From a virus (Duplodnaviria > Heunggongvirae > Uroviricota > Caudoviricetes), in IMG/VR virus record IMGVR_UViG_2737471849_000006: 28,600 nucleotides of DNA; one strand, given 5' to 3'. Numbering within the stretch: position 1 is the stretch's first letter; each line of letters starts with the position of its first letter. The notes under the pieces were generated by a model. The model was not told where the DNA came from and did not search any database. It saw only the letters and a program-made list of their open reading frames with translations. The position numbers and the translations under genes were made by a program. Below are positions 6,993 through 25,258 of this stretch, one piece after another.

Positions 6993-8579
6993 ATGATACC
7001 AATCAAAGATCTAACTCTTGGCTATGCTGATGCTGAAAATTATAAGAGAAGGGAGAATAAAGAATTACTTAACAAAGTGTTCATACGTGATAATCACCTA
7101 TCTAGATTATGTGAACCAAATATATCGTTTCTTGTAGGAGAGAAAGGTACTGGTAAAACCGCATACTCTATCTATCTCTCAAATAACAATATTAACAATA
7201 CGCTAGCTACAACTAAATATATAAGAGAGACAGAATATCAAAAATTTATCACTCTTAAATCTGAAAAGCATTTAAATTTGTCTGACTTCTCTGGCATATG
7301 GAAAGTTATTCTATATTTATTAATATCAAAACAAGTATTAGATAAAGAAGGGAAAATTTCAAAGTTACTAAATTATTCAAAATTCTCATCACTTAATGAT
7401 GCAATAGATGAGTATTATCTTAAGGCATTTTCACCAGAAATAATTCAAGCCCTCAGTTTTGTTCAAGAGTCAAAAGTTGCAGCCGAACTACTTCATAAGC
7501 ATGCAACCTTAAAAGGTGAAGAAAGAGAGTCTTTATCTTTTTCTGAGAGCAGATTTCAGATAAATTTATTTTATATACAAAAAAAATTTGAAGAGGCCTT
7601 TAGCCAAATACGTTTATCTCAAAATCATATTTTATTTATCGATGGTATTGATATCCGCCCTTCCTCAATTCCATACGATGATTATCTAGAATGTATAAAA
7701 GGATTAGCTCACGCAGTCTGGGAGATTAACAACGATTTCTTCCCAAGTATAAAGGGAGGAAAAGGGAGAATGAAGGCCGTTCTCTTGATCAGGCCAGATA
7801 TATTTGAATCCATAGGATTACAAAATCAAAACGCAAAAATCAGAGATAATTCAGTATTCTTGGACTGGCGGACAGAATATGTTAACCACCGTAGCTCTCA
7901 ATTATTTGAGGTATTAGATCATCTGCTTAGGACTCAGCAAGACATGGCCCTTAAAAAGGGACAGGCATGGGACCATTATTTCCCTTGGGATTCACCCAAC
8001 GTCCATGATAATTATAATCACCCCACATCATTTATTAATTTCCTTCGCTGGTCATATTATCGCCCAAGAGATATATTACGGATGCTCGAAATTATCAAAT
8101 CACACGCCAGCGGTGATGATGGGAAAAATCAATTTAGTCTAGATGACTTTGAAAGTCCTAGCATGCAAAGAGATTACTCTAACTATTTACTTGGAGAAAT
8201 AAAAGATCATTTATCATTTTATTATGGAAGTGAACATTATGAGATTTTTTTAAAGTTCTTTGAATTCCTCTCTGGAAAAGATACTTTTGATTACGCTGAA
8301 TACCTCTTAGCATATAAACAACTTGAAACTCATATTAGTTCCATTTCCACAACAAAACCAAAATTCATGACAACTGCAAATGACTTCCTTCAGTTTCTTT
8401 TTGGTCTCAATGTAATATGCTATATAGAAACAACCGAAGATAATAATAGGTTTATACGTTGGTGTTTTAGAGAAAGAAGTTACGCAAATATCTCACCAAA
8501 AATAAAAACAGGAATGAAATATCAAATATTTTATGGCTTGGCAAAAGCCTTAAACGTCGGAAAGGCTTTAAAAAAATAA
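6993..8579 (+). CDS. P-loop NTPase of unassigned family; cargo gene in the Z/fun slot between FI and G, candidate anti-phage or exclusion protein
   Basis: 528-aa ORF with GAGG ribosome-binding site 5 nt before the ATG. Walker A GEKGTGKT near residue 50 and a Walker B-like ILFIDGID near residue 210. Strongly AT-rich codon usage compared with flanking tail genes, and transcribed opposite to them. Confidence 0.7.
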   Translation: MIPIKDLTLGYADAENYKRRENKELLNKVFIRDNHLSRLCEPNISFLVGEKGTGKTAYSIYLSNNNINNTLATTKYIRETEYQKFITLKSEKHLNLSDFSGIWKVILYLLISKQVLDKEGKISKLLNYSKFSSLNDAIDEYYLKAFSPEIIQALSFVQESKVAAELLHKHATLKGEERESLSFSESRFQINLFYIQKKFEEAFSQIRLSQNHILFIDGIDIRPSSIPYDDYLECIKGLAHAVWEINNDFFPSIKGGKGRMKAVLLIRPDIFESIGLQNQNAKIRDNSVFLDWRTEYVNHRSSQLFEVLDHLLRTQQDMALKKGQAWDHYFPWDSPNVHDNYNHPTSFINFLRWSYYRPRDILRMLEIIKSHASGDDGKNQFSLDDFESPSMQRDYSNYLLGEIKDHLSFYYGSEHYEIFLKFFEFLSGKDTFDYAEYLLAYKQLETHISSISTTKPKFMTTANDFLQFLFGLNVICYIETTEDNNRFIRWCFRERSYANISPKIKTGMKYQIFYGLAKALNVGKALKK

Positions 8580-14029: not shown

Positions 14030-14815
14030 ATGGTCAGCTATAATGTGACTAATGTGTGGGGGCTAATCGTTTTTTTCCTTTGTAGCTTTGCAGTATTAGC
14101 ATTTTTTAGCTTTGGTAAAAGTAACCTTATGAGGCTTATTGCACATTATTTCAATTTTGGATATTCAGACAAAAAATTAAAAAGACTTGACCGCGAGTGG
14201 CGCGACATTCAACTATTTAAAATAATTAACGGAATCAATGTATCAGGCATTGAAAATGTGAGAATGATACAGCAGGGACTGATTGATGGAAAACTAAAAA
14301 CATCGTATTTTTTCCTTACTCGTATCTGGGGTGACATAACAAAACCACCACACATAATTAAAACAATAATTGTAATTCTGGCCAGTATTTTTTACATTCT
14401 CCTCGCATGTTACATACACAACGAACAATCCGTTATAGTAAGGGATGCCACAGGCATACCATATAAAAACATGATGTACTATGTTTATAGTGACAAAGTT
14501 CTTTTATCCTTCAAAAATAAAGCAGTTGAATTTAATAAAACTTATAGCCTTGCCGATTGCAAGAGACTGCAAAACGTATTTATAAAAGACACACTTCCTG
14601 AGATCGCCTGCAATAAGCTCTTACAGCTAAACGAGGAGGACTCCGAATGGTTAAGCCAGGAGATTAAAGATAATAACAGACACAAAAAAGCATTATTAAT
14701 ACTATCCCTCGTCTATTTCACTTCAGGTCTGGTTATATTCCTGTCATATACAAAATTCTTTTACGCCAATAAGAAGGTTTTAGAATACAAAGCATCAAAT
14801 AAAAATCACTCATAA
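14030..14815 (+). CDS. integral membrane protein with three predicted transmembrane helices; cargo gene in the orf30 slot between V and S, possible exclusion/abortive-infection factor
   Basis: 261-aa ORF with AAGGAG ribosome-binding site 7 nt before the ATG. Hydrophobic segments LIVFFLCSFAVLAFFSF, IIKTIIVILASIFYILLACYI and ALLILSLVYFTSGLVIFLSY. AT-rich, on the strand opposite the tail genes, followed by a hairpin at 14822-14856. Confidence 0.65.
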   Translation: MVSYNVTNVWGLIVFFLCSFAVLAFFSFGKSNLMRLIAHYFNFGYSDKKLKRLDREWRDIQLFKIINGINVSGIENVRMIQQGLIDGKLKTSYFFLTRIWGDITKPPHIIKTIIVILASIFYILLACYIHNEQSVIVRDATGIPYKNMMYYVYSDKVLLSFKNKAVEFNKTYSLADCKRLQNVFIKDTLPEIACNKLLQLNEEDSEWLSQEIKDNNRHKKALLILSLVYFTSGLVIFLSYTKFFYANKKVLEYKASNKNHS

Positions 14816-16759: not shown

Positions 16760-17257
16760 TTAAGCCGGTACGCCGCCAGCGGTACGCCAGACGGTGACCA
16801 GTTTTTCCAGTGAATGCTCACGCTGACCGTAACCGGCACCCGGCAGGGACGCCCAGATATTGCGACAGCGTGAAATGGCGCGCTCAATGCGTCCCGCCCG
16901 GATGTCATCCAGTGCACCGCGTTCGCGGATCAACTGAATGGCGAGCCTGTCCTGTGACAACGGACTGAAATCCGGCAGGGCAAGCTGTTTGCGGTAATGC
17001 GGCCAGAACAGGTAAAGCTGCTGATAGCGACCGGAGGCCGTGGATTTTTCACCGCGACGGTTAAACACCTTCGCCGGTCGGCCATGCGCGAACGGGTGGT
17101 CACTGTAGTCGGTGAAAATTTCCGGCTTCCCGTCCAGTCCGGTGACTATCACGTCATAGCCCCGGTTTTTCGTCAGTGGATGATTCGCCGTCCCTTCGGA
17201 CACGGCCAGCATGTCGAGAAAGGCGGCGATATTCTGATGCGTGTTAATTACCGGCAT
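16760..17257 (-). CDS. K: endolysin gpK
   Basis: 165 aa, P2 gpK length; lysozyme-like catalytic region containing VSEGT. Confidence 0.88.
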   Translation of the reverse strand: MPVINTHQNIAAFLDMLAVSEGTANHPLTKNRGYDVIVTGLDGKPEIFTDYSDHPFAHGRPAKVFNRRGEKSTASGRYQQLYLFWPHYRKQLALPDFSPLSQDRLAIQLIRERGALDDIRAGRIERAISRCRNIWASLPGAGYGQREHSLEKLVTVWRTAGGVPA

Positions 17258-17538
17258 TACTGTTTCCCCCTGCCCTTAAAGCGGCGCTGAATGGCAATCT
17301 CAATCACCTGATAACCGGCGATACCCAGCATGGAGCCGATGCCGCACACCGCTGGCAGTGACAGGTCAGGAAACTGCACCAGAACAACACCGGCAACCAT
17401 CGAGACAAAACCACCGAGCAACATGCGCCCGATAAACAGACGCGGGGTGATAGGTTCACCACCGGCAAGCACCTTGCCGACAACAATCAGCACCCCAATC
17501 ATGAAAAGCGACAGGACGCTTTTTTCTTCTGCTGTCAT
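17257..17538 (-). CDS. Y: holin gpY
   Basis: 93 aa with hydrophobic helices and a charged C-terminus (RRFKGRGKQ); P2 gpY length. Confidence 0.88.
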   Translation of the reverse strand: MTAEEKSVLSLFMIGVLIVVGKVLAGGEPITPRLFIGRMLLGGFVSMVAGVVLVQFPDLSLPAVCGIGSMLGIAGYQVIEIAIQRRFKGRGKQ

Positions 17539-17541
17539 GCG

Positions 17542-17607
17542 TTACTCCCACAGATTGACAGTTTCAGCCACGGGCGCGGTCTGAACGTCGGGCAGTTCGA
17601 CGGCGGT
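17542..17607 (-). pseudogene. X: 3' remnant of tail gene X (last ~21 codons only)
   Basis: The C-terminal TAVELPDVQTAPVAETVNLWE matches the end of P2 gpX as I recall it. Everything upstream in that frame (from about 17608) is the reverse complement of terminase P coding sequence, not X. Confidence 0.7.
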
Positions 17608-18453
17608 GAACGCGTGGAAATCGACGTCAGTCATAACGCCCTTGCCGGTGGGCTTCTCTGTGCGGACGGCCAGTGGCGGCAGATTGTCACCATTGAAGAC
17701 GCCCTGAAAGGCGGCTGCACATTGTTCGACATTGAGCAGCTCAAACGCGAAAACAGCGCCGACGATTTTAAAAACCTGTTCATGTGTGAATTTGTTGACG
17801 ACAAGGCATCGGTGTTCCCGTTCGAGGAGCTGCAACGCTGCATGGTCGACACGCTGGAAGAATGGGAAGACTATGCGCCGTTTGCCGCCAATCCGTTCGG
17901 CTCCCGCCCGGTATGGATTGGTTACGACCCGTCACACCGTGGCGACAGCGCCGGATGCGTGGTACTGGCACCGCCGGTGGTGGCCGGTGGCAAATTCAGA
18001 ATACTTGAGCGTCACCAGTGGAAAGGCATGGACTTTGCCACCCAGGCGGAATCCATCCGCAAACTCACCGAAAAATACAACGTCGAATACATCGGTATTG
18101 ATGCCACCGGCCTCGGTGTCGGCGTGTTCCAGCTCGTGCGCTCGTTCTATCCCGCCGCGCGTGATATCCGCTACACGCCGGAAATGAAAACCGCAATGGT
18201 GCTCAAGGCAAAAGACGTTATCCGCCGTGGCTGTCTGGAATACGACGTCAGCGCCACCGACATCACCAGCTCGTTTATGGCTATCCGCAAGACCATGACC
18301 AGCAGCGGACGCAGCGCCACCTATGAGGCCAGCCGCAGCGAGGAAGCCAGCCACGCCGACCTCGCCTGGGCGACCATGCACGCCCTGTTAAATGAGCCAC
18401 TCACCGCCGGTATCAGCACCCCGCTGACATCCACCATTCTGGAGTTTTACTGA
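17608..18453 (+). pseudogene. P: 5'-truncated terminase large subunit gpP (C-terminal ~280 codons, nuclease domain)
   Basis: The stop overlaps the Q start (TGATG at ~18451-18455) as in P2. P2 gpP is 590 aa; the reading frame here is abutted directly by the X remnant with no O, N, M or L between. The exact deletion breakpoint near 17605-17610 is approximate. Confidence 0.75.
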
Positions 18454-19487
18454 TGAGCAAGAAAAAAGGGAAAACACCGCAACCTGCGGCAAAAACAATG
18501 ACCGCCAGCGGCCCGAAAATGGAGGCATTCACCTTTGGTGAGCCGGTGCCGGTACTCGACCGCCGTGACATTCTGGATTACGTCGAGTGCATCAGTAACG
18601 GCAGATGGTATGAGCCACCGGTCAGCTTTACCGGTCTGGCAAAAAGCCTGCGGGCTGCCGTGCATCACAGCTCGCCGATTTACGTCAAACGCAATATTCT
18701 GGCCTCGACATTTATCCCGCATCCATGGCTTTCCCAGCAGGATTTCAGCCGCTTTGTGCTGGATTTTCTGGTGTTCGGTAATGCGTTTCTGGAAAAGCGT
18801 TACAGCACCACCGGTAAGGTCATCAGACTGGAAACCTCACCGGCAAAATATACCCGCCGTGGCGTGGAAGAGGATGTTTACTGGTGGGTGCCGTCCTTCA
18901 ACGAGCCGACAGCCTTCGCGCCCGGCTCCGTGTTTCACCTGCTGGAGCCGGATATTAATCAGGAGCTGTACGGCCTGCCGGAATATCTCAGCGCCCTTAA
19001 CTCTGCCTGGCTGAATGAGTCGGCCACGTTGTTCCGCCGCAAGTATTACGAAAATGGCGCACATGCCGGATACATCATGTACGTCACCGATGCCGTGCAG
19101 GATCGCAACGATATCGAAATGCTTCGCGAAAACATGGTCAAGTCGAAAGGCCGCAACAACTTTAAAAACCTGTTTCTCTATGCCCCACAGGGGAAAGCCG
19201 ACGGCATTAAAATTATCCCCCTCAGTGAAGTGGCGACGAAGGACGATTTTTTTAATATCAAAAAAGCCAGCGCCGCTGACCTGCTGGACGCGCACCGCAT
19301 CCCCTTTCAGTTGATGGGTGGCAAGCCGGAGAACGTCGGGTCGCTGGGTGATATTGAGAAAGTGGCAAAGGTCTTTGTCCGCAATGAGCTTATCCCGTTA
19401 CAGGACAGGATCCGCGAGATAAACGGCTGGCTCGGTCAGGAGGTCATCCGCTTTAAAAACTACTCACTGGACACTGACAACGGCTGA
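18453..19487 (+). CDS. Q: portal (capsid) protein gpQ
   Basis: 344 aa starting MSKKKGKTPQPAAKTMTASGPKMEAFTFGEP, the P2 gpQ length and N-terminus. Confidence 0.9.
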   Translation: MSKKKGKTPQPAAKTMTASGPKMEAFTFGEPVPVLDRRDILDYVECISNGRWYEPPVSFTGLAKSLRAAVHHSSPIYVKRNILASTFIPHPWLSQQDFSRFVLDFLVFGNAFLEKRYSTTGKVIRLETSPAKYTRRGVEEDVYWWVPSFNEPTAFAPGSVFHLLEPDINQELYGLPEYLSALNSAWLNESATLFRRKYYENGAHAGYIMYVTDAVQDRNDIEMLRENMVKSKGRNNFKNLFLYAPQGKADGIKIIPLSEVATKDDFFNIKKASAADLLDAHRIPFQLMGGKPENVGSLGDIEKVAKVFVRNELIPLQDRIREINGWLGQEVIRFKNYSLDTDNG

Positions 19488-19656: not shown

Positions 19657-19675
19657 GTGCTTTCCCCGCCTCGCC
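19657..19675. other. cos: cos site (19-nt cohesive-end sequence)
   Basis: GTGCTTTCCCCGCCTCGCC is the exact reverse complement of the P2 cohesive end GGCGAGGCGGGGAAAGCAC as I recall it. Confidence 0.85.
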
Positions 19676-19781: not shown

Positions 19782-19800
19782 ATGCACCCTATAGGTGCAT
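19782..19800 (-). terminator. candidate intrinsic terminator after the two-gene cargo operon
   Basis: Perfect 7-bp stem ATGCACC / GGTGCAT with a 5-nt loop, 13 nt downstream of the 333-aa gene stop, followed on the minus strand by ATTTTG. Confidence 0.5.
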
Positions 19801-19812
19801 TCATATTAAACA

Positions 19813-20814
19813 TCACCGAGCCATCTTGACTGCATAATGAACACAAAAATAATGTTCTCCCGCATATCTAAAATGATGTTCAATTTTTCTCAAACCTATA
19901 TATGGAGTCTCCACTTCTTTAATCCCAACTATCTCATGAGATTCTACACCAATATCTACCGGAGTAATCTCTTTTAGATAATCAATGTATCTCTCACACC
20001 AAGCATCAAATTTTGCACCAGTATAATAAGCAATTAAAAACAAGCGTTTAACATTAATAGGATTATAGTTACTAATTAGCTTTGAATAATGCTTTAATAT
20101 GTTAGCTTGATCTAGAGATTTTAAAATCAATGCTTCTATTATAGCAAATAGATTTCCTTTATCTTCAATAACAAGATCTAATTCACCCGCACTTTTACCA
20201 GATTGAGACTCTCCCTCTCTAGTTTGATCTTTTACCTCATAATTCTTAGCTAATAACATATCCCGTATAAAATCATTAAAATCATCTTCACCATATCCTT
20301 TAGCAGAGCGACGCCCCAATCTTTGAAGCACCCAAGATAAATCACTATCAAACTTTATAAAATTCAAAGGACGCTGCACTCGACCATCCTTTGATATTAA
20401 GCTTATACTATTAAGATTTAACAAATTAATCCTTTGCCTGATTAATTCATCAATATATCCAGAGTAACTATTATTATCTAACACTACGATATGCTTATCA
20501 AAAGTAGTGGCTGCATTAGCAACTGCACAAACAACTATATCCTTAATATCCTCAGAACTATTCGGCACTGGTGTACGCAATATCTTGCCTGAAGGAGCTT
20601 TAGATAACTCAGACTCCCACTTCTTAAAAAACAAAAAAGAATCCTTGTTGTTTCCGCAAGACTTTAAATAACCTAAGCGAATTTTTCCATCAGCATCAAG
20701 AATCAACTCATTTTCACCATTAACAATGGTTTCAATAAAAAAACCGCTAAAAACTTTAACATCAGAAATATTAGCAGCAACAAATTCAGGACACAAACAA
20801 ACAGCACAAAGCAT
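19813..20814 (-). CDS. partner/effector of the OLD-family ATPase; function unassigned, possible nuclease
   Basis: 333-aa ORF whose ATG follows the ATPase stop codon by 1 nt (TGAtATG). AT-rich. Contains ELDLVIEDKG and LILDADGK acidic motifs but no domain I can assign with confidence. Confidence 0.65.
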   Translation of the reverse strand: MLCAVCLCPEFVAANISDVKVFSGFFIETIVNGENELILDADGKIRLGYLKSCGNNKDSFLFFKKWESELSKAPSGKILRTPVPNSSEDIKDIVVCAVANAATTFDKHIVVLDNNSYSGYIDELIRQRINLLNLNSISLISKDGRVQRPLNFIKFDSDLSWVLQRLGRRSAKGYGEDDFNDFIRDMLLAKNYEVKDQTREGESQSGKSAGELDLVIEDKGNLFAIIEALILKSLDQANILKHYSKLISNYNPINVKRLFLIAYYTGAKFDAWCERYIDYLKEITPVDIGVESHEIVGIKEVETPYIGLRKIEHHFRYAGEHYFCVHYAVKMAR

Positions 20815-20815
20815 A

Positions 20816-22483
20816 TCAATGAACTCCCTTTGAGTTCATTATTTTTTGTATCTTTAATTCCTGTATTCTAATTGTATCCTGAATCTCAACATCCATAAAC
20901 TCATTTGGCCATGTGATATCTCCATCAGAATTCACAGCCACTCTATTTAGTAAGGTTGATGTTCCCTCTTCATCTCGCTCAAGATGATAGATTGCCACAT
21001 GGTCCTCAGTAAGTTCGCTTGATTCATCAACAATTCTTAATCTAATCCGTCTAACTAATGCATCACTATGTGTTTCAATAATAAAAATTTTCTTTTCTTG
21101 CATAGATATTTTAATTAATGCGTCAGTTAACCATGCCTGCATTTTAGGATGCAAATGTATTTCTGGTTGTTCTATTATTGTAATCGAGCCCTTTGGTGAC
21201 AAATAAGCTTGAACCAAGACAGGCAACACTTGTGATATTCCAAACCCTACATCTGTCAATTCTAAATTAACAGCATCTTGGTTTATAACTATCTTATGAA
21301 TTATGTCATTAACTCTAACTATATCAACCGCTAAGTTAAATTCAGCGAGAAGAAGGTTTATGTTTTCTGTTATTTTTGTATTTTTCTTCAGAATCTCCGC
21401 CAACTCAGAGCCATCAGCAGAATTTAACTGAGCATGATTGACTGTTTTATCTAATAAATAATAACGCTGAGGAAATGCCCTCAACGGGCTGACATGATTA
21501 ACATTTTCGCCATCAAACATTTTTGAAAGCATTAATACTCCCAGAGAAACAACATGTGACAAAAAGTTAACAACAGGGTTGTAGGAATTTCCAAAAAAAA
21601 CATAAAAACCACGTCCTTCATTGACAGGGAATAGCCCCAAAGAATAAGGATTCATGATTTCTAAGATATCAGACTTACATCCTCTAAATACTTCTTGAGG
21701 GATAACATCCGACAATACAACGACATTATTCTTTTTGGGTAACAGTTCAACTATTCTTTCATCATTCTTATTTAGAAGAACAAATCTCGAAACCTTTACC
21801 ACACCTTTATTTTTATCATATCTGAAGTCATAACTTATTTTAGATGCAGACAATTTATTTCCTGAAATAGAAACAACTTTAGTTAGGCAATCTTTGATTC
21901 TCTTCAATGGGCATTCATATATAAATCTGCGTAAGTTTTCTGAGGTAGCCCGGCTAAACATAATATTATTGCCAGCATCTCTAAAAAGCATAATCAACTG
22001 GCACAATTTATCAGCAATAATATTTAATTTAGCCTCCTCAAACTCATCAAAATTAACAATAGCATTCAAAGATTCATTTATCAAATTATTGGCCTTCGCG
22101 ACCAACTCATCATTATTTTTTACTGTCTGTATAGTGAATCGCATAATCATAGCAAATGATTCTAAAGTTTCTCTTCTCAGAGTATCAATGCCATTTTTAA
22201 CTACGCTATTATCAGAAAAATCAAAGCTAAAGTTAAGTGTTTTGGAGTCATCTTTATTTTTTATAATATTTAATGCTTCCCCCATTCCCACTTTAGGTCC
22301 ATTCAGCCGTAGAGCAGAGTCAGACAATGACATTGAATCAACTGTCTGAGAAAACATCAACAAAGAGTTAATTAGTGCACTTTTTCCACAACTATTTGCA
22401 CCTAACAATATTGTCAATGGCTTTAAATCTAACTTAAAGCTTTCGTATGCTTTATAATTTTGTCCTGTAAAAGTTCTCAGCAT
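20816..22483 (-). CDS. OLD-family (AAA_15/AAA_21-type) ABC ATPase without a fused nuclease domain
   Basis: 555 aa. N-terminal Walker A LGANSCGKSALINSL; C-terminal IIEQPEIHLHP (Walker B/D-loop signature of OLD/GajA/AriA/PtuA-type ATPases) and FIIETHSDALV (H-loop); a long insert lies between. AGGAG ribosome-binding site 5 nt before the ATG. AT-rich. Confidence 0.75.
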   Translation of the reverse strand: MLRTFTGQNYKAYESFKLDLKPLTILLGANSCGKSALINSLLMFSQTVDSMSLSDSALRLNGPKVGMGEALNIIKNKDDSKTLNFSFDFSDNSVVKNGIDTLRRETLESFAMIMRFTIQTVKNNDELVAKANNLINESLNAIVNFDEFEEAKLNIIADKLCQLIMLFRDAGNNIMFSRATSENLRRFIYECPLKRIKDCLTKVVSISGNKLSASKISYDFRYDKNKGVVKVSRFVLLNKNDERIVELLPKKNNVVVLSDVIPQEVFRGCKSDILEIMNPYSLGLFPVNEGRGFYVFFGNSYNPVVNFLSHVVSLGVLMLSKMFDGENVNHVSPLRAFPQRYYLLDKTVNHAQLNSADGSELAEILKKNTKITENINLLLAEFNLAVDIVRVNDIIHKIVINQDAVNLELTDVGFGISQVLPVLVQAYLSPKGSITIIEQPEIHLHPKMQAWLTDALIKISMQEKKIFIIETHSDALVRRIRLRIVDESSELTEDHVAIYHLERDEEGTSTLLNRVAVNSDGDITWPNEFMDVEIQDTIRIQELKIQKIMNSKGVH

Positions 22484-22722
22484 ATAATCTCCTTTTTAAT
22501 AATAGTATAAATGTTATGTCTCATAAGTTTTACCATATATACTCCACGTTATGGCAAATCTCATCAAAAATGAAAGCATCTCTTTTTATACATTTAAGCA
22601 GCAACCTGTTTCTCTGACCACCCATAGCCGTAGTATGACGCATAGAAAAGAAAACATGAACAGATGTTACAAAAAATGTAGTATGCTATACAAAACAATG
22701 CATTACAGCCTGAAGCGCTATC

Positions 22723-24993
22723 TTATACTACAAATTCCGGCCACTCATCAGCGACCGGATACGTGAATCCTTTCCCGCCATAATTTACGGTCGCGCCACG
22801 CGCCAGCGCCTCAATCTCCCATCGCTGCGGCCTGATACCGTTCTGAGCAAGGTCAACACGGATACGGGTAATTTGCATTCGTTCCGACCTGGTCAGTCTG
22901 GCCGATGGCGCTATTTCATGCGGTTTTAACGGACTTCCGTTTCTTTGCTGACGGTTTGGTCTTCTCAGGCCGTGTTTTAATGCGCTTCTGAGCGCCCTCA
23001 CGACCTCCTGGTCATTCCATTCGATAACACCGTCATCAACCAGATTAAGCACTGCTGCGGCGTGTTCAGAAGGTGTGGGAGCCGGTAACGAAGTATCACC
23101 ACCGGTGAGCTTTCCACAGTTATTGACAGGACTCCGAGGCGCGGCGATGCCGCTTTTTAAAGTCAAAGGCTCAACGACCGGAACTTTCGGCACAATGCGC
23201 CAGTTCGTCGTTCTGGTGATATGAATATGACGCGCGCCGAGATGCGGCGCGTAAATGCCGACCACTCTCTCGACCTCTTCCTCGTACTCGTTAACATCAT
23301 CCGACGGGCTACGGGCAACCCTGACAGTCTGACAATCGCGCGGGACATTTGCCCCACCCTGCGCGCTGATATACAACGCAAAATCACCACTGTCTGCGGC
23401 AGCGCGAGCAGCCTCGACGCGTTCGTCAAACTCATCAGCAATACTGACGCCGCGAGGCAATTTGCGTAGTTCACGGTAAGCCCCCATTGTCGGCAGTCCA
23501 ACCGTTTTAAATTGCGGGATGCGCCACGTTGACGCCCATGCGGTAACAGCCGCGGCAGTATCTTTAAGCGGCTTACCGGTATCGTTATCGAGCTGACCAT
23601 CCAGTGCATAGCCGTCGATATTTTTTGAAATGTATTTCGCGATATATCCCGCAGCACCGCCCCGATTAAGGTGTTTTGCCTGAAAACGGTTTCGCGCGGC
23701 TCCTCTTTCGTCGCCATCCTCTTTGAGCGCATAGCGACGCATGATTTCGATAATCTGGTTACGCTGGCGCGGATTACAAAAAAGCATCATATGCCAGTGC
23801 GGCGTTCCGTCGTGGTGTGGCTCGACGACACGCAAACCGTAGACCTGTAAATCATTATCCTTGAATGCCGTGCGCATCAGGCTCCAGATACGGCAGAGAT
23901 AACGCTGCGCATCCTTTGGATTGAATGCCTCATCATTCCAGCCGTGATTAAGCTGGACGGTTTTACTTTCGCCTTTTCCGACCTGACGTGTCGGGTGATA
24001 CTTTGACGGCGCGGTCAGCGTGATAAACATCCCCACATCACCCTCTGCGGCGGCGTAACGCTCAATACCGGCAATGGTGTTCATCAGCTCCATCCGGCGA
24101 ATTTCAGGATTAGAAATACTGCCCATCACCTTACTGATAAGGTCGATGCGCTCGCCGGTTTCCCTGTTTTCAAGGTCACACGATTTAAGAAATTCCAGAT
24201 TTGCCTGGCGGCGCGCACGCACATCACGAATGGCGTGTTTACTGGCATAAGGAGAACGGTCTTTATTGACCTCCCCGACAGCTATCAGTAACGCTTCATG
24301 CCAGCGCATACGCTGGCCTTTAAGCTGATGAGTCCACCACTCATCGTTAAACAGACGGGCAATGGCAGAATATGCCTGCCTCGTGGTCATCAGCCCTTTA
24401 CGGTATTTTTTCCAGTAGAGAGGGGAAATATTGAAAGCACGTGCAGCGCCAGCAACATGACCATAGAGGTGAGCCTGCGCCTCATCCGTAAACAGCGATT
24501 CTTTTTCGCCATGCGCATCCACCCAGGCATCGCTGAGTTCCTCATACATCATGAAAAGCTGCGATGAGATACGGGCAGCAAACTTTTTCAGCTCCTTGTC
24601 ATTCATTCCCGGCAGGCGCGCATAGTGGTCACGCTCTGCCAGAAACAGTAACGACGCGTCGGTGTTCATTTCATGGCGCTGATTCACACGCTCAATGCGC
24701 GGCCATAAACGACGCTGAAAAGTGGATGTGAGGAAATAAAACCCGTGCACCGGGCTTTTATTGCGCCGGATGTAGTCATAGCGTGAAGTAAACAGCGAGC
24801 GCAAAAAGTAAGGCAGGCGGTTAATCGTGGATAAAACACCTTGCACCTGACGCATCTCGTCACGTGTAAGGGGTCTTTCGCGCCCGACGGCCTCGCGTGG
24901 CGCGTTCCATGCATAAGCACCGGTAAACGCCTTACCGGTGCCTGCAGCAAATGCTGACGGAGGGACAAAACGCCCGGAGGCTTTAACGGCCAT
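22723..24993 (-). CDS. A: rolling-circle replication initiator gpA
   Basis: About 756 aa from the internal start MAVKASGRFVPP (P2 gpA N-terminus as I recall it; the track ORF extends 14 codons further to 25035). Contains the HUH-type HWHMMLF motif and the catalytic Tyr region YIAKYISK. Confidence 0.85.
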   Translation of the reverse strand: MAVKASGRFVPPSAFAAGTGKAFTGAYAWNAPREAVGRERPLTRDEMRQVQGVLSTINRLPYFLRSLFTSRYDYIRRNKSPVHGFYFLTSTFQRRLWPRIERVNQRHEMNTDASLLFLAERDHYARLPGMNDKELKKFAARISSQLFMMYEELSDAWVDAHGEKESLFTDEAQAHLYGHVAGAARAFNISPLYWKKYRKGLMTTRQAYSAIARLFNDEWWTHQLKGQRMRWHEALLIAVGEVNKDRSPYASKHAIRDVRARRQANLEFLKSCDLENRETGERIDLISKVMGSISNPEIRRMELMNTIAGIERYAAAEGDVGMFITLTAPSKYHPTRQVGKGESKTVQLNHGWNDEAFNPKDAQRYLCRIWSLMRTAFKDNDLQVYGLRVVEPHHDGTPHWHMMLFCNPRQRNQIIEIMRRYALKEDGDERGAARNRFQAKHLNRGGAAGYIAKYISKNIDGYALDGQLDNDTGKPLKDTAAAVTAWASTWRIPQFKTVGLPTMGAYRELRKLPRGVSIADEFDERVEAARAAADSGDFALYISAQGGANVPRDCQTVRVARSPSDDVNEYEEEVERVVGIYAPHLGARHIHITRTTNWRIVPKVPVVEPLTLKSGIAAPRSPVNNCGKLTGGDTSLPAPTPSEHAAAVLNLVDDGVIEWNDQEVVRALRSALKHGLRRPNRQQRNGSPLKPHEIAPSARLTRSERMQITRIRVDLAQNGIRPQRWEIEALARGATVNYGGKGFTYPVADEWPEFVV

Positions 24994-25258
24994 ATGAGCC
25001 AAAAGCCTCTGAACAACGCCTGCTGAGTTGCTCAACCTGCGCGTTTAAATCAGCAAAAGACTTTGCGCTTCCGATCAGAATATCGTGATGCATCAGGCCG
25101 GAAACGAGCTGGCTTAATTTCGGGTAATAACCAACCACCGCCAGCCATTCCTGACCGGCGTTTTTACCGCTTTCCGCTCTCTTTTTCTCGTGGAGAATAA
25201 ACTGAAAGCTGTCACTGGTAACGACATAACGTTCGCCAATTTCAATACGAATGCTCAT
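24983..25258 (-). CDS. hypothetical early-operon protein
   Basis: 91-aa ORF in the B-to-A early operon; its end overlaps the A start by 11 nt. No recognisable motif. Confidence 0.5.
   Translation of the reverse strand: MSIRIEIGERYVVTSDSFQFILHEKKRAESGKNAGQEWLAVVGYYPKLSQLVSGLMHHDILIGSAKSFADLNAQVEQLSRRCSEAFGSYGR

Follow-up and report, generated by a model that had tools for sequence, protein, structure and literature searches.

What does the AT-rich gene pair do that lies near the cos site of a P2-like prophage, where P2 itself carries old and tin? The window analysed here, a stretch of 28,600 nucleotides (IMG/VR virus record IMGVR_UViG_2737471849_000006), is a P2-like prophage in reverse orientation. 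The pair, two open reading frames (ORFs) called ORF555 and ORF333, had been read in the original prediction as an OLD-family ATPase with a partner of unclear type. Both ORFs were recovered as described, with their lengths in amino acids (aa):

20816-22483 (-): ORF555, 555 aa, predicted OLD-like AAA_15 ABC ATPase of the NsnB/HEC-03 subtype, without TOPRIM
19813-20814 (-): ORF333, 333 aa, partner with predicted PIN-like and PD-(D/E)xK domains

At this base composition, the chance of a stop-free frame was 1e-21 for 555 codons and 3e-13 for 333 codons. We consider it probable that the two genes together make up a self-contained module for anti-phage defence, which the prophage carries as a moron in the cos-proximal hotspot of P2 and which works by the mechanism proposed below.

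The ATPase was assigned by profile searches. ORF555 matched the Pfam families AAA_15 (7.6e-25) and AAA_21 (2.2e-17). The order of its PADLOC-DB matches was NsnB (2.3e-51), HEC-03B (5.2e-43), PDC-M55A (4.7e-41) and AriA (3.3e-28), followed at a lower level by GajA and PtuA (~1e-10; PtuA 4e-10). NsnB belongs to Menshen, a system made of NsnA, NsnB and NsnC (Millman 2022; analysed by Li et al. 2025, PMC12065111). HEC-03 (Hma-embedded candidate 03; Payne et al. 2024) protects against phages, and both of its genes are required (bioRxiv 10.1101/2024.01.29.577857). The PADLOC-DB v2 model HEC-03B (458 positions) represents the 461-aa ATPase that is named HEC-03A in that preprint. BLASTP aligned ORF555 with this validated HEC-03 ATPase (WP_025259138) at 32% identity over 270 aa (1e-27), and the strings TDVGFG and EQPEIHLHP were identical in both proteins. 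These matches place ORF555 in the NsnB/HEC-03 subtype of ABC ATPases, with PARIS, Septu and Gabija further away. The likeness to a split OLD/PARIS-like or Septu-like system, proposed originally, did not hold, as NsnB and HEC-03 scored far ahead of AriA, PtuA and GajA.

All motifs quoted in the original prediction were found, namely GANSCGKS, IIEQPEIHLHP and IIETHSD in ORF555, and LILDADG (residues 37-43) and ELDLVIEDKG (residues 211-220) in ORF333. The conservation of the ATPase motifs was determined in a family alignment of 38 members. The main elements of ORF555 were:

residues 28-35, 22379-22402 (-): Walker A, GANSCGKS; G28, N30, S31, G33, K34 and S35 invariant
residues 436-446, 21146-21178 (-): Walker B/D-loop, IIEQPEIHLHP; E438 and Q439 invariant, with Gln replacing the catalytic Glu
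residues 468-474: H-loop, IIETHSD; H472 invariant
residues 491-555, 20819-21013 (-): C-terminal tail, beta-hairpin and long helix of the DUF3696 type; proposed docking site for the partner

Two further features were invariant in the family: R335 in SPLRAFPQ, at the Q-loop position, and the sequence T-D-V-G-F-G with G413-F-G415, which replaced the ABC signature. Pfam DUF3696 was matched by 11 of the 38 family members. In one of them, the relative P0155, the match covered residues 502-541 with 26.4 bits (gathering cutoff 22), and the gene downstream of this ATPase was a homologue of ORF333.

An AlphaFold2 (AF2) model of ORF555 (pLDDT, predicted local distance difference test, 84; predicted template-modelling score, pTM, 0.83) consisted of an ABC head, a helical-bundle/beta-sheet insertion (Insert-1, ~residues 90-260) and a C-terminal hairpin and helix. 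The predicted end of the protein about 40 residues past the H-loop was not borne out: 83 residues were counted beyond His472, which formed a beta-hairpin and a long helix in the model. They contained no TOPRIM and Pfam gave no Toprim match, so that the reading as an OLD-superfamily ATPase without a fused TOPRIM was upheld by this tail together with the AAA_15 and AAA_21 matches. A Foldseek search against the Protein Data Bank (PDB) returned generic matches to GajA, retron PtuA, OLD (Thermus), Rad50 and SMC heads, with template-modelling (TM) scores of 0.3-0.4, and the sequence identity to the structurally matched GajA and PtuA was 9-13%. Since these matches were generic only, ORF555 has no close relative among the solved structures.

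The partner was expected to match no known effector, and by sequence this was the case. ORF333 matched neither a Pfam family nor any PADLOC model (AriB, PtuB, GajB, NsnC and the HEC-03 PIN protein among them); it gave no DUF4435 or AriB match at E <= 1, and no HNH, TOPRIM or UvrD-helicase domain was detected. The suggestion of an undescribed pairing was supported in that no characterised system was matched full-length by both proteins in the Pfam and PADLOC profile searches. A sequence search against PDB chains yielded nothing meaningful (best E 0.45, an endoglucanase). Hits to purC/SAICAR synthase (0.005 and 0.055) were judged spurious. The partner was not featureless, however, as two domains could be assigned by fold:

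residues 1-140, 20395-20814 (-): N-domain, PIN-like fold, predicted to be catalytically degenerate ('inPIN'-like, for inactive PIN)
residues 150-333, 19816-20367 (-): C-domain, nuclease of the PD-(D/E)xK restriction-endonuclease fold; predicted effector

Hints of a PD-(D/E)xK nuclease at residues 174-251 were already present below threshold in the Pfam, NCBIfam and PHROGs searches (PDDEXK_4 0.059). The restriction endonucleases matched by ORF333 were BamHI (7.9), BstYI (7.6), BglII (7.4), OkrAI (6.5), McrC (6.4), SwaI and EcoRI, and the BFVD viral fold library gave only weak matches with low TM scores, to 'PIN like domain' and 'PD-(D/E)XK nuclease'. The C-domain has an alpha-beta-beta-beta-alpha-beta core, in which strands 2 and 3 bear conserved acids and a Lys is conserved as well. 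Residue conservation was measured in 113 domain-only relatives, in which D196, Q197, D213, E227 and Y250 were present in 100%, H242 in 99%, K245 in 98% and E176 in 96%. We read D196/Q197, D213, E227 and H242/K245 as the catalytic set. The nuclease site of ORF333 looks intact, because all of these conserved residues are present.

The acidic motif ELDLVIEDKG had been singled out in the original prediction. Its residues E211 and D213 were invariant, and 90% or more of the family kept E217. Positions D218 and K219 were variable, and for this reason its 'EDK' is not the catalytic ExK element. In the PIN-like half, D40 was the sole invariant acid, strand 1 ended in C-x-C-P instead of the PIN Asp, and position 112 varied between D and N. 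The four-acid metal site of PIN nucleases was not found in the N-domain, whose residues make a catalytically dead PIN the most likely reading.

The nuclease domain was much more widespread than ORF333 itself. A profile search of 1.84 billion representatives (50%-identity clusters) gave 1,109 matches at E <= 1e-3. Only ~35 of them were full-length; the others covered residues ~140-331 and were part of proteins of 150-1,700 aa. The signature across the relatives was E..DQ..GExD..E..HxxK..Y. LRR-Roc-COR GTPases and an nSTAND3 NTPase carry the domain C-terminally, and shorter versions were located between hsdS and hsdR in a type I restriction-modification (R-M) operon, or adjoining an nSTAND NTPase. 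These neighbourhoods are conflict-system contexts. In several NTPase-based immune systems, this unannotated domain takes the place of the terminal effector, and a domain that is missing from Pfam would justify a family model of its own.

A further relative was found in Carboxylicivirga linearis (Bacteroidota, L009 4615-11454). There, a 344-aa protein shares only the nuclease core (residues 176-276, 37% identity) and is encoded between proteins of 949 and 961 aa; none of the three had a Pfam match.

The two genes occurred together at every locus examined. The ORF333 family comprised 53 clusters among 5.8 billion proteins (word-indexed search), all of them hypothetical, and a scan of the genomes from 185,579 species gave seven loci, of which one matched only in part. 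The ATPase gene was directly upstream of the partner gene in all six full-length genome loci (Dryocola, Leclercia, Escherichia ruysiae in a P2-like prophage, Pantoea and two Pseudomonas). Serratia, a second allele from an E. coli P2 prophage, and P. fluorescens showed the same order, as did a plasmid of Vibrio coralliilyticus with a partner of only 27% identity. The identities of both proteins dropped in step (77/73, 48/42 and 45/35%). The pairing of ORF555 and ORF333 is therefore obligate. No third conserved gene was present among the neighbours of the loci examined, which were otherwise unrelated (resolvase/integrase, TonB receptor, LysR, QueA, WYL/Ogr). A gene for NsnA or DUF262 was not found at ~11 loci (flanks; Pfam lists of L010, L012 and L014; upstream neighbours of L003-L008).

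Both genes were under purifying selection. In comparison with an 88%-identical allele of E. coli ARS-C301 (L018), dN/dS, the ratio of non-synonymous to synonymous changes, was 0.047 for ORF555 and 0.144 for ORF333. The ATPase tail (residues 491-555) had zero non-synonymous changes (dN = 0) at a dS of 0.47. In ARS-C301, the replication gene A (L018 3735-4321) is annotated as frameshifted and both cassette genes are intact, so the cassette seems to outlive its prophage there.

The location of the cassette agreed with the original description of an AT-rich insertion in the old/tin hotspot. It was flanked by the following features:

18453-19487 (+): portal gene Q
22723-25035 (-): replication gene A
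19657-19675 (-): GGCGAGGCGGGGAAAGCAC, an exact match to the core of the P2 cos sequence; a context marker outside the system

The cassette occupies the old/tin slot because it is placed between gene A and cos/Q, and the region is annotated in the same way in an almost identical RefSeq prophage. Several cassettes from the P2 hotspot have been validated experimentally as defences (PMC9122126). The GC content was 33.1% in the cassette, 32.6% in the 239-bp upstream spacer and 53-54% in the flanking A and Q genes.

The two genes are separated by a single base, the TGA stop of ORF555 being followed by T and the ATG of ORF333 (..CAT TGA T ATG..). The non-coding elements of the locus were:

22736-22759, listed as 22759-22736: terminator-like hairpin where gene A ends, ahead of the spacer
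22484-22722 (-): AT-rich spacer upstream of ORF555, presumed to be its own promoter region
20817-20841 (-): junction hairpin with a 10-bp stem, which encloses the ORF333 Shine-Dalgarno sequence GGGAG; without a T-tract on the coding strand
19782-19800 (-): terminator-like hairpin, 13 nt past the ORF333 stop; 8-bp stem followed by CATTTTGCAT

The one-base gap and the Shine-Dalgarno sequence inside the hairpin fit a translational coupling of ORF555 and ORF333. The junction palindrome was scored as terminator-like on both strands, though the coding strand lacks a T-tract. Two small ORFs were considered as a possible third gene and rejected, one of 71 aa at 22551-22766 (+) and one of 53 aa across cos, as they were unannotated in the RefSeq copies and otherwise unsupported.

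The prophage in the window is defective. Its terminase gene P (17614-18453) is reduced to the C-terminal 279 aa, the holin gene Y (17257-17538) abuts the truncated P, and the alignment with an intact relative (E308, L002) begins only at 17601. From this alignment start and the Y/P junction (17257-17614), we conclude that the deletion took out X, L, M, N and O, along with P's 5' half. The defence cassette is intact despite the deletion of the capsid genes. Two more AT-rich ORFs were seen elsewhere in the window. A 528-aa ORF at 6993-8579 (+) (30-37% GC) lies between the tail genes FI and G, in the Z/fun hotspot of P2; it had no Pfam match and a faint PADLOC match (PDC-M28C, E 0.003), and is a candidate moron or defence gene. 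A 261-aa ORF at 14030-14815 (+) (35-39% GC) is inserted between the tail genes V and S on the opposite strand, and matched neither Pfam nor PADLOC.

From these data, and from what has been published on ABC-ATPase defence systems, we propose the following mechanism, in which the complex formation, the trigger, the substrate and the defence phenotype are inferred. ORF555 would be the sensor and switch, oligomerising in the ATP-bound state. With Gln in place of the catalytic Walker B Glu, the protein would tend to persist as an ATP-bound dimer or tetramer and not turn over rapidly. We suggest such a stable ATP-bound form because the equivalent engineered E-to-Q change traps the heads of Rad50 and SMC proteins. 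The natural E-to-Q Walker B of this clade is also a handle on whether ATP binding, and not hydrolysis, is the switch. The variable Insert-1 of ORF555, here taken as ~residues 76-325, would likely be the surface that recognises the trigger. The dead PIN-like domain of ORF333 would act as an adaptor that docks on the paired DUF3696-type tails of ORF555, a role suggested by AlphaFold 3 (AF3) models of NsnB-NsnC (PMC12065111). The PD-(D/E)xK C-domain would be the effector, kept inactive until a phage cue alters the state of the ATPase. It would then be activated or released and cut nucleic acid, stopping either phage replication or the infected cell. DNA is the most likely substrate, given the modelled BamHI/BglII-like fold. 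Least certain are the trigger, the substrate, and the choice between abortive infection and direct destruction of phage DNA.

Several observations weigh against a defence module of this kind. ORF555 itself stayed below the DUF3696 threshold in Pfam (E <= 0.01). The similarity between the ORF333 family and the HEC-03 PIN protein was not significant (hhalign E 0.14), nor was any PADLOC NsnC model matched, and the adaptor analogy is for this reason one of fold and architecture only. A promoter scan found no convincing promoter or strong sigma-70 consensus in the upstream spacer; the scan was uninformative, with 17 sites as compared to 13.4 +/- 3.9 in shuffles and 0 on the coding strand in the spacer. 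No experimental phenotype is on record for the cassette, which was tabulated by Rousset et al. but was not among the systems they cloned (PMC9122126).

The strongest alternative is a toxin-antitoxin (TA)-like addiction module, with the nuclease as toxin, the ATPase as its neutraliser and the stabilisation of prophages or islands as the main role. It is consistent with the AAA_21 match, a family described by Pfam as 'putative AbiEii toxin, Type IV TA system', with the tight coupling of a nuclease and a regulator on prophages, an integrase/resolvase island and a plasmid, and with the persistence of the cassette in defective prophages. However, the nearest validated relatives, HEC-03 and Menshen, confer phage resistance, and the same nuclease domain occurs in STAND and Roc-COR conflict systems and in an R-M operon, so we consider addiction as the main role unlikely. 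A single module could combine TA behaviour with abortive-infection defence.

Much less probable is that the pair belongs to a characterised OLD-type system, be it a split OLD, PARIS, Septu or Gabija. The AAA_15/AAA_21 matches, the weaker similarities to AriA (3e-28) and to GajA and PtuA, and the nearest solved structures (GajA, retron PtuA and OLD) all point towards this group, but the atypical motifs of NsnB and HEC-03 are present in ORF555, their scores are far higher, and GajA and PtuA were matched at low TM scores only. The domain content of the partner, PIN-like plus PD-(D/E)xK in place of DUF4435/TOPRIM, HNH or a UvrD helicase, and without a match to AriB, PtuB or GajB, rules this membership out.

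An involvement in the phage's own DNA metabolism appears equally improbable. The pair would then be an SbcCD/Rad50-like ATPase and nuclease for recombination, repair or the degradation of host DNA in lytic growth, in line with weak SMC_N, RecF and SbcC-type matches, with the Rad50 and SMC heads among the structural matches, and with a related phage ATPase that is annotated as 'DNA double-strand break repair ATPase'. Yet ORF555 has no coiled coil and no Mre11-type partner, and the pair is accessory and rare, of foreign GC content and placed in a variable moron hotspot. It is also found outside phages, on chromosomal islands and a plasmid. Least probable of all is a decayed, non-functional Menshen system that has lost NsnA: the combination of an NsnB-like ATPase and an NsnC-like partner without a DUF262 gene would look like this, but the NsnA-less pair is kept in Escherichia, Serratia, Leclercia, Pantoea, Dryocola, Pseudomonas and Vibrio, both genes are under strong purifying selection with all catalytic motifs invariant, and HEC-03 works as a two-gene ATPase and PIN system without NsnA.

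The two-gene defence module remains our preferred reading, and its novelty lies in the function. The cassette itself is already on record, which limits the novelty claimed originally. It was deposited in 2006 as AM157364.1, 'Bacteriophage P2-EC5 proviral ORF555 and ORF333' (E. coli ECOR5), with 99.6% identical DNA and both products annotated as hypothetical, and the protein pair (WP_024249463 and WP_024249462) is catalogued under 'AAA_15/AAA_21 + hypothetical' by Rousset et al. 2022 (supplementary table; PMC9122126). Literature searches on ORF555/ORF333, P2-EC5, DUF3696 and inPIN found no description or test of the cassette (the supplements of a 2026 P2/P4 paper were outside the search). The cassette is rare, being present in 6 of 5,426 complete E. 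coli genomes at >=80% coverage. Two proteins that have been hypothetical in GenBank since 2006 thus receive a testable functional assignment, at a locus where current defence finders register only an orphan NsnB/HEC-03-like ATPase.

How does such a module compare with known systems? An ABC ATPase with a nuclease in a prophage hotspot is a known theme, and the ATPase clade has validated members. Two things are new: an inPIN-PD-(D/E)xK effector in an architecture without NsnA, and the identification of the nuclease domain as an effector module that is widespread and lacks annotation. P2 Old, the class 1-2 OLD proteins and GajA share the ATPase superfamily with ORF555, and P2 old occupies the same genomic slot. 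These proteins carry a fused TOPRIM, whereas ORF555 ends in a hairpin and a helix, and ORF333 is not a UvrD-like helicase of the GajB type. PARIS and Septu resemble the proposed module in that the nuclease has a gene of its own and is held and controlled by an oligomer of an OLD-like ABC ATPase, and PARIS is also located in P2/P4 hotspots. They differ in the effector, which is DUF4435-TOPRIM (AriB) or HNH (PtuB) and not PIN plus PD-(D/E)xK, and in the much weaker similarity of the ATPase. HEC-02, an ABC ATPase with a NERD PD-(D/E)xK protein, has been validated and needs both genes (bioRxiv 10.1101/2024.01.29.577857). It shares with the cassette the separately encoded nuclease of the PD-(D/E)xK superfamily, but its ATPase was not among the top matches of ORF555 and its partner lacks a PIN-like adaptor.

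HEC-03 is closer. It is likewise a two-gene operon, in which a DUF3696-type OLD-like ABC ATPase is followed by a PIN-fold protein, and the ATPases are homologous. Its partner is a 157-aa stand-alone VapC-like PIN protein (WP_025259137), which is taken as the nuclease, whereas the PIN-like domain of ORF333 has lost its acids and is fused to a 190-aa PD-(D/E)xK nuclease. ORF555 is also ~95 aa longer (555 versus 461 aa).

A further close parallel is Menshen. NsnB deviates from other ABC ATPases by E-N in Walker B, Arg in place of the Q-loop Gln, GxG in place of SGG, and a DUF3696 tail, and NsnC is an inactive PIN with a C-terminal nuclease, the inPIN being placed between two DUF3696 tails of an NsnB tetramer in AF3 models (PMC12065111). 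The ORF555 clade shares the Q-loop Arg and the G-x-G, the acid of Walker B is followed by a non-acidic residue here too, and the DUF3696 tail is shared at family level. ORF333 may follow the plan of NsnC, with a probably inactive PIN-like N-domain and a predicted C-terminal nuclease. Two differences stand out. No cassette locus examined has NsnA, the ParB-DUF262 and ParBDB protein that is the defining component and proposed sensor of Menshen (PMC12065111), and ORF333 matches no PADLOC NsnC model, its PD-(D/E)xK effector being outside the 15 described NsnC-C families (nine BECR, two Toprim, PLD, DUF4160, PB-UF1 and DUF2103-like; PMC12065111). Pairs without NsnA were beyond the reach of the Menshen survey, because it was seeded from NsnA (PMC12065111).

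A second pair of this kind was seen in Klebsiella P2-like phages (Reipivirus; Kp4845-1 and 11 sibling records; L020 2564-5510). A 648-aa NsnB-like ATPase with the motif FEQPELHLHP is encoded there in the A-Q hotspot, and it matched NsnB (6e-77; HEC-03B 8e-59) better than ORF555 did. Its gene is overlapped by that of a 338-aa partner, which had no PADLOC match and no significant similarity to the ORF333 family (hhalign E 0.33). The Klebsiella pair may be a sister system, again of two genes, in which the partner has been swapped.

Taken further, the comparison leads to a more tentative picture, whose chances we place slightly below even. Pairs of an NsnB-type ATPase and an inPIN-effector protein would be an autonomous and widespread defence chassis in which the ATPase senses via Insert-1. 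The Klebsiella pair would be another member, and the three-gene Menshen would be its NsnA-augmented version. The nuclease would belong to a large family that is exchanged among ABC-ATPase, STAND and Roc-COR systems. The cassette suggests that the Menshen B-C module can operate without the DUF262 sensor, which bears on how Menshen senses phages and on what NsnA adds to it.

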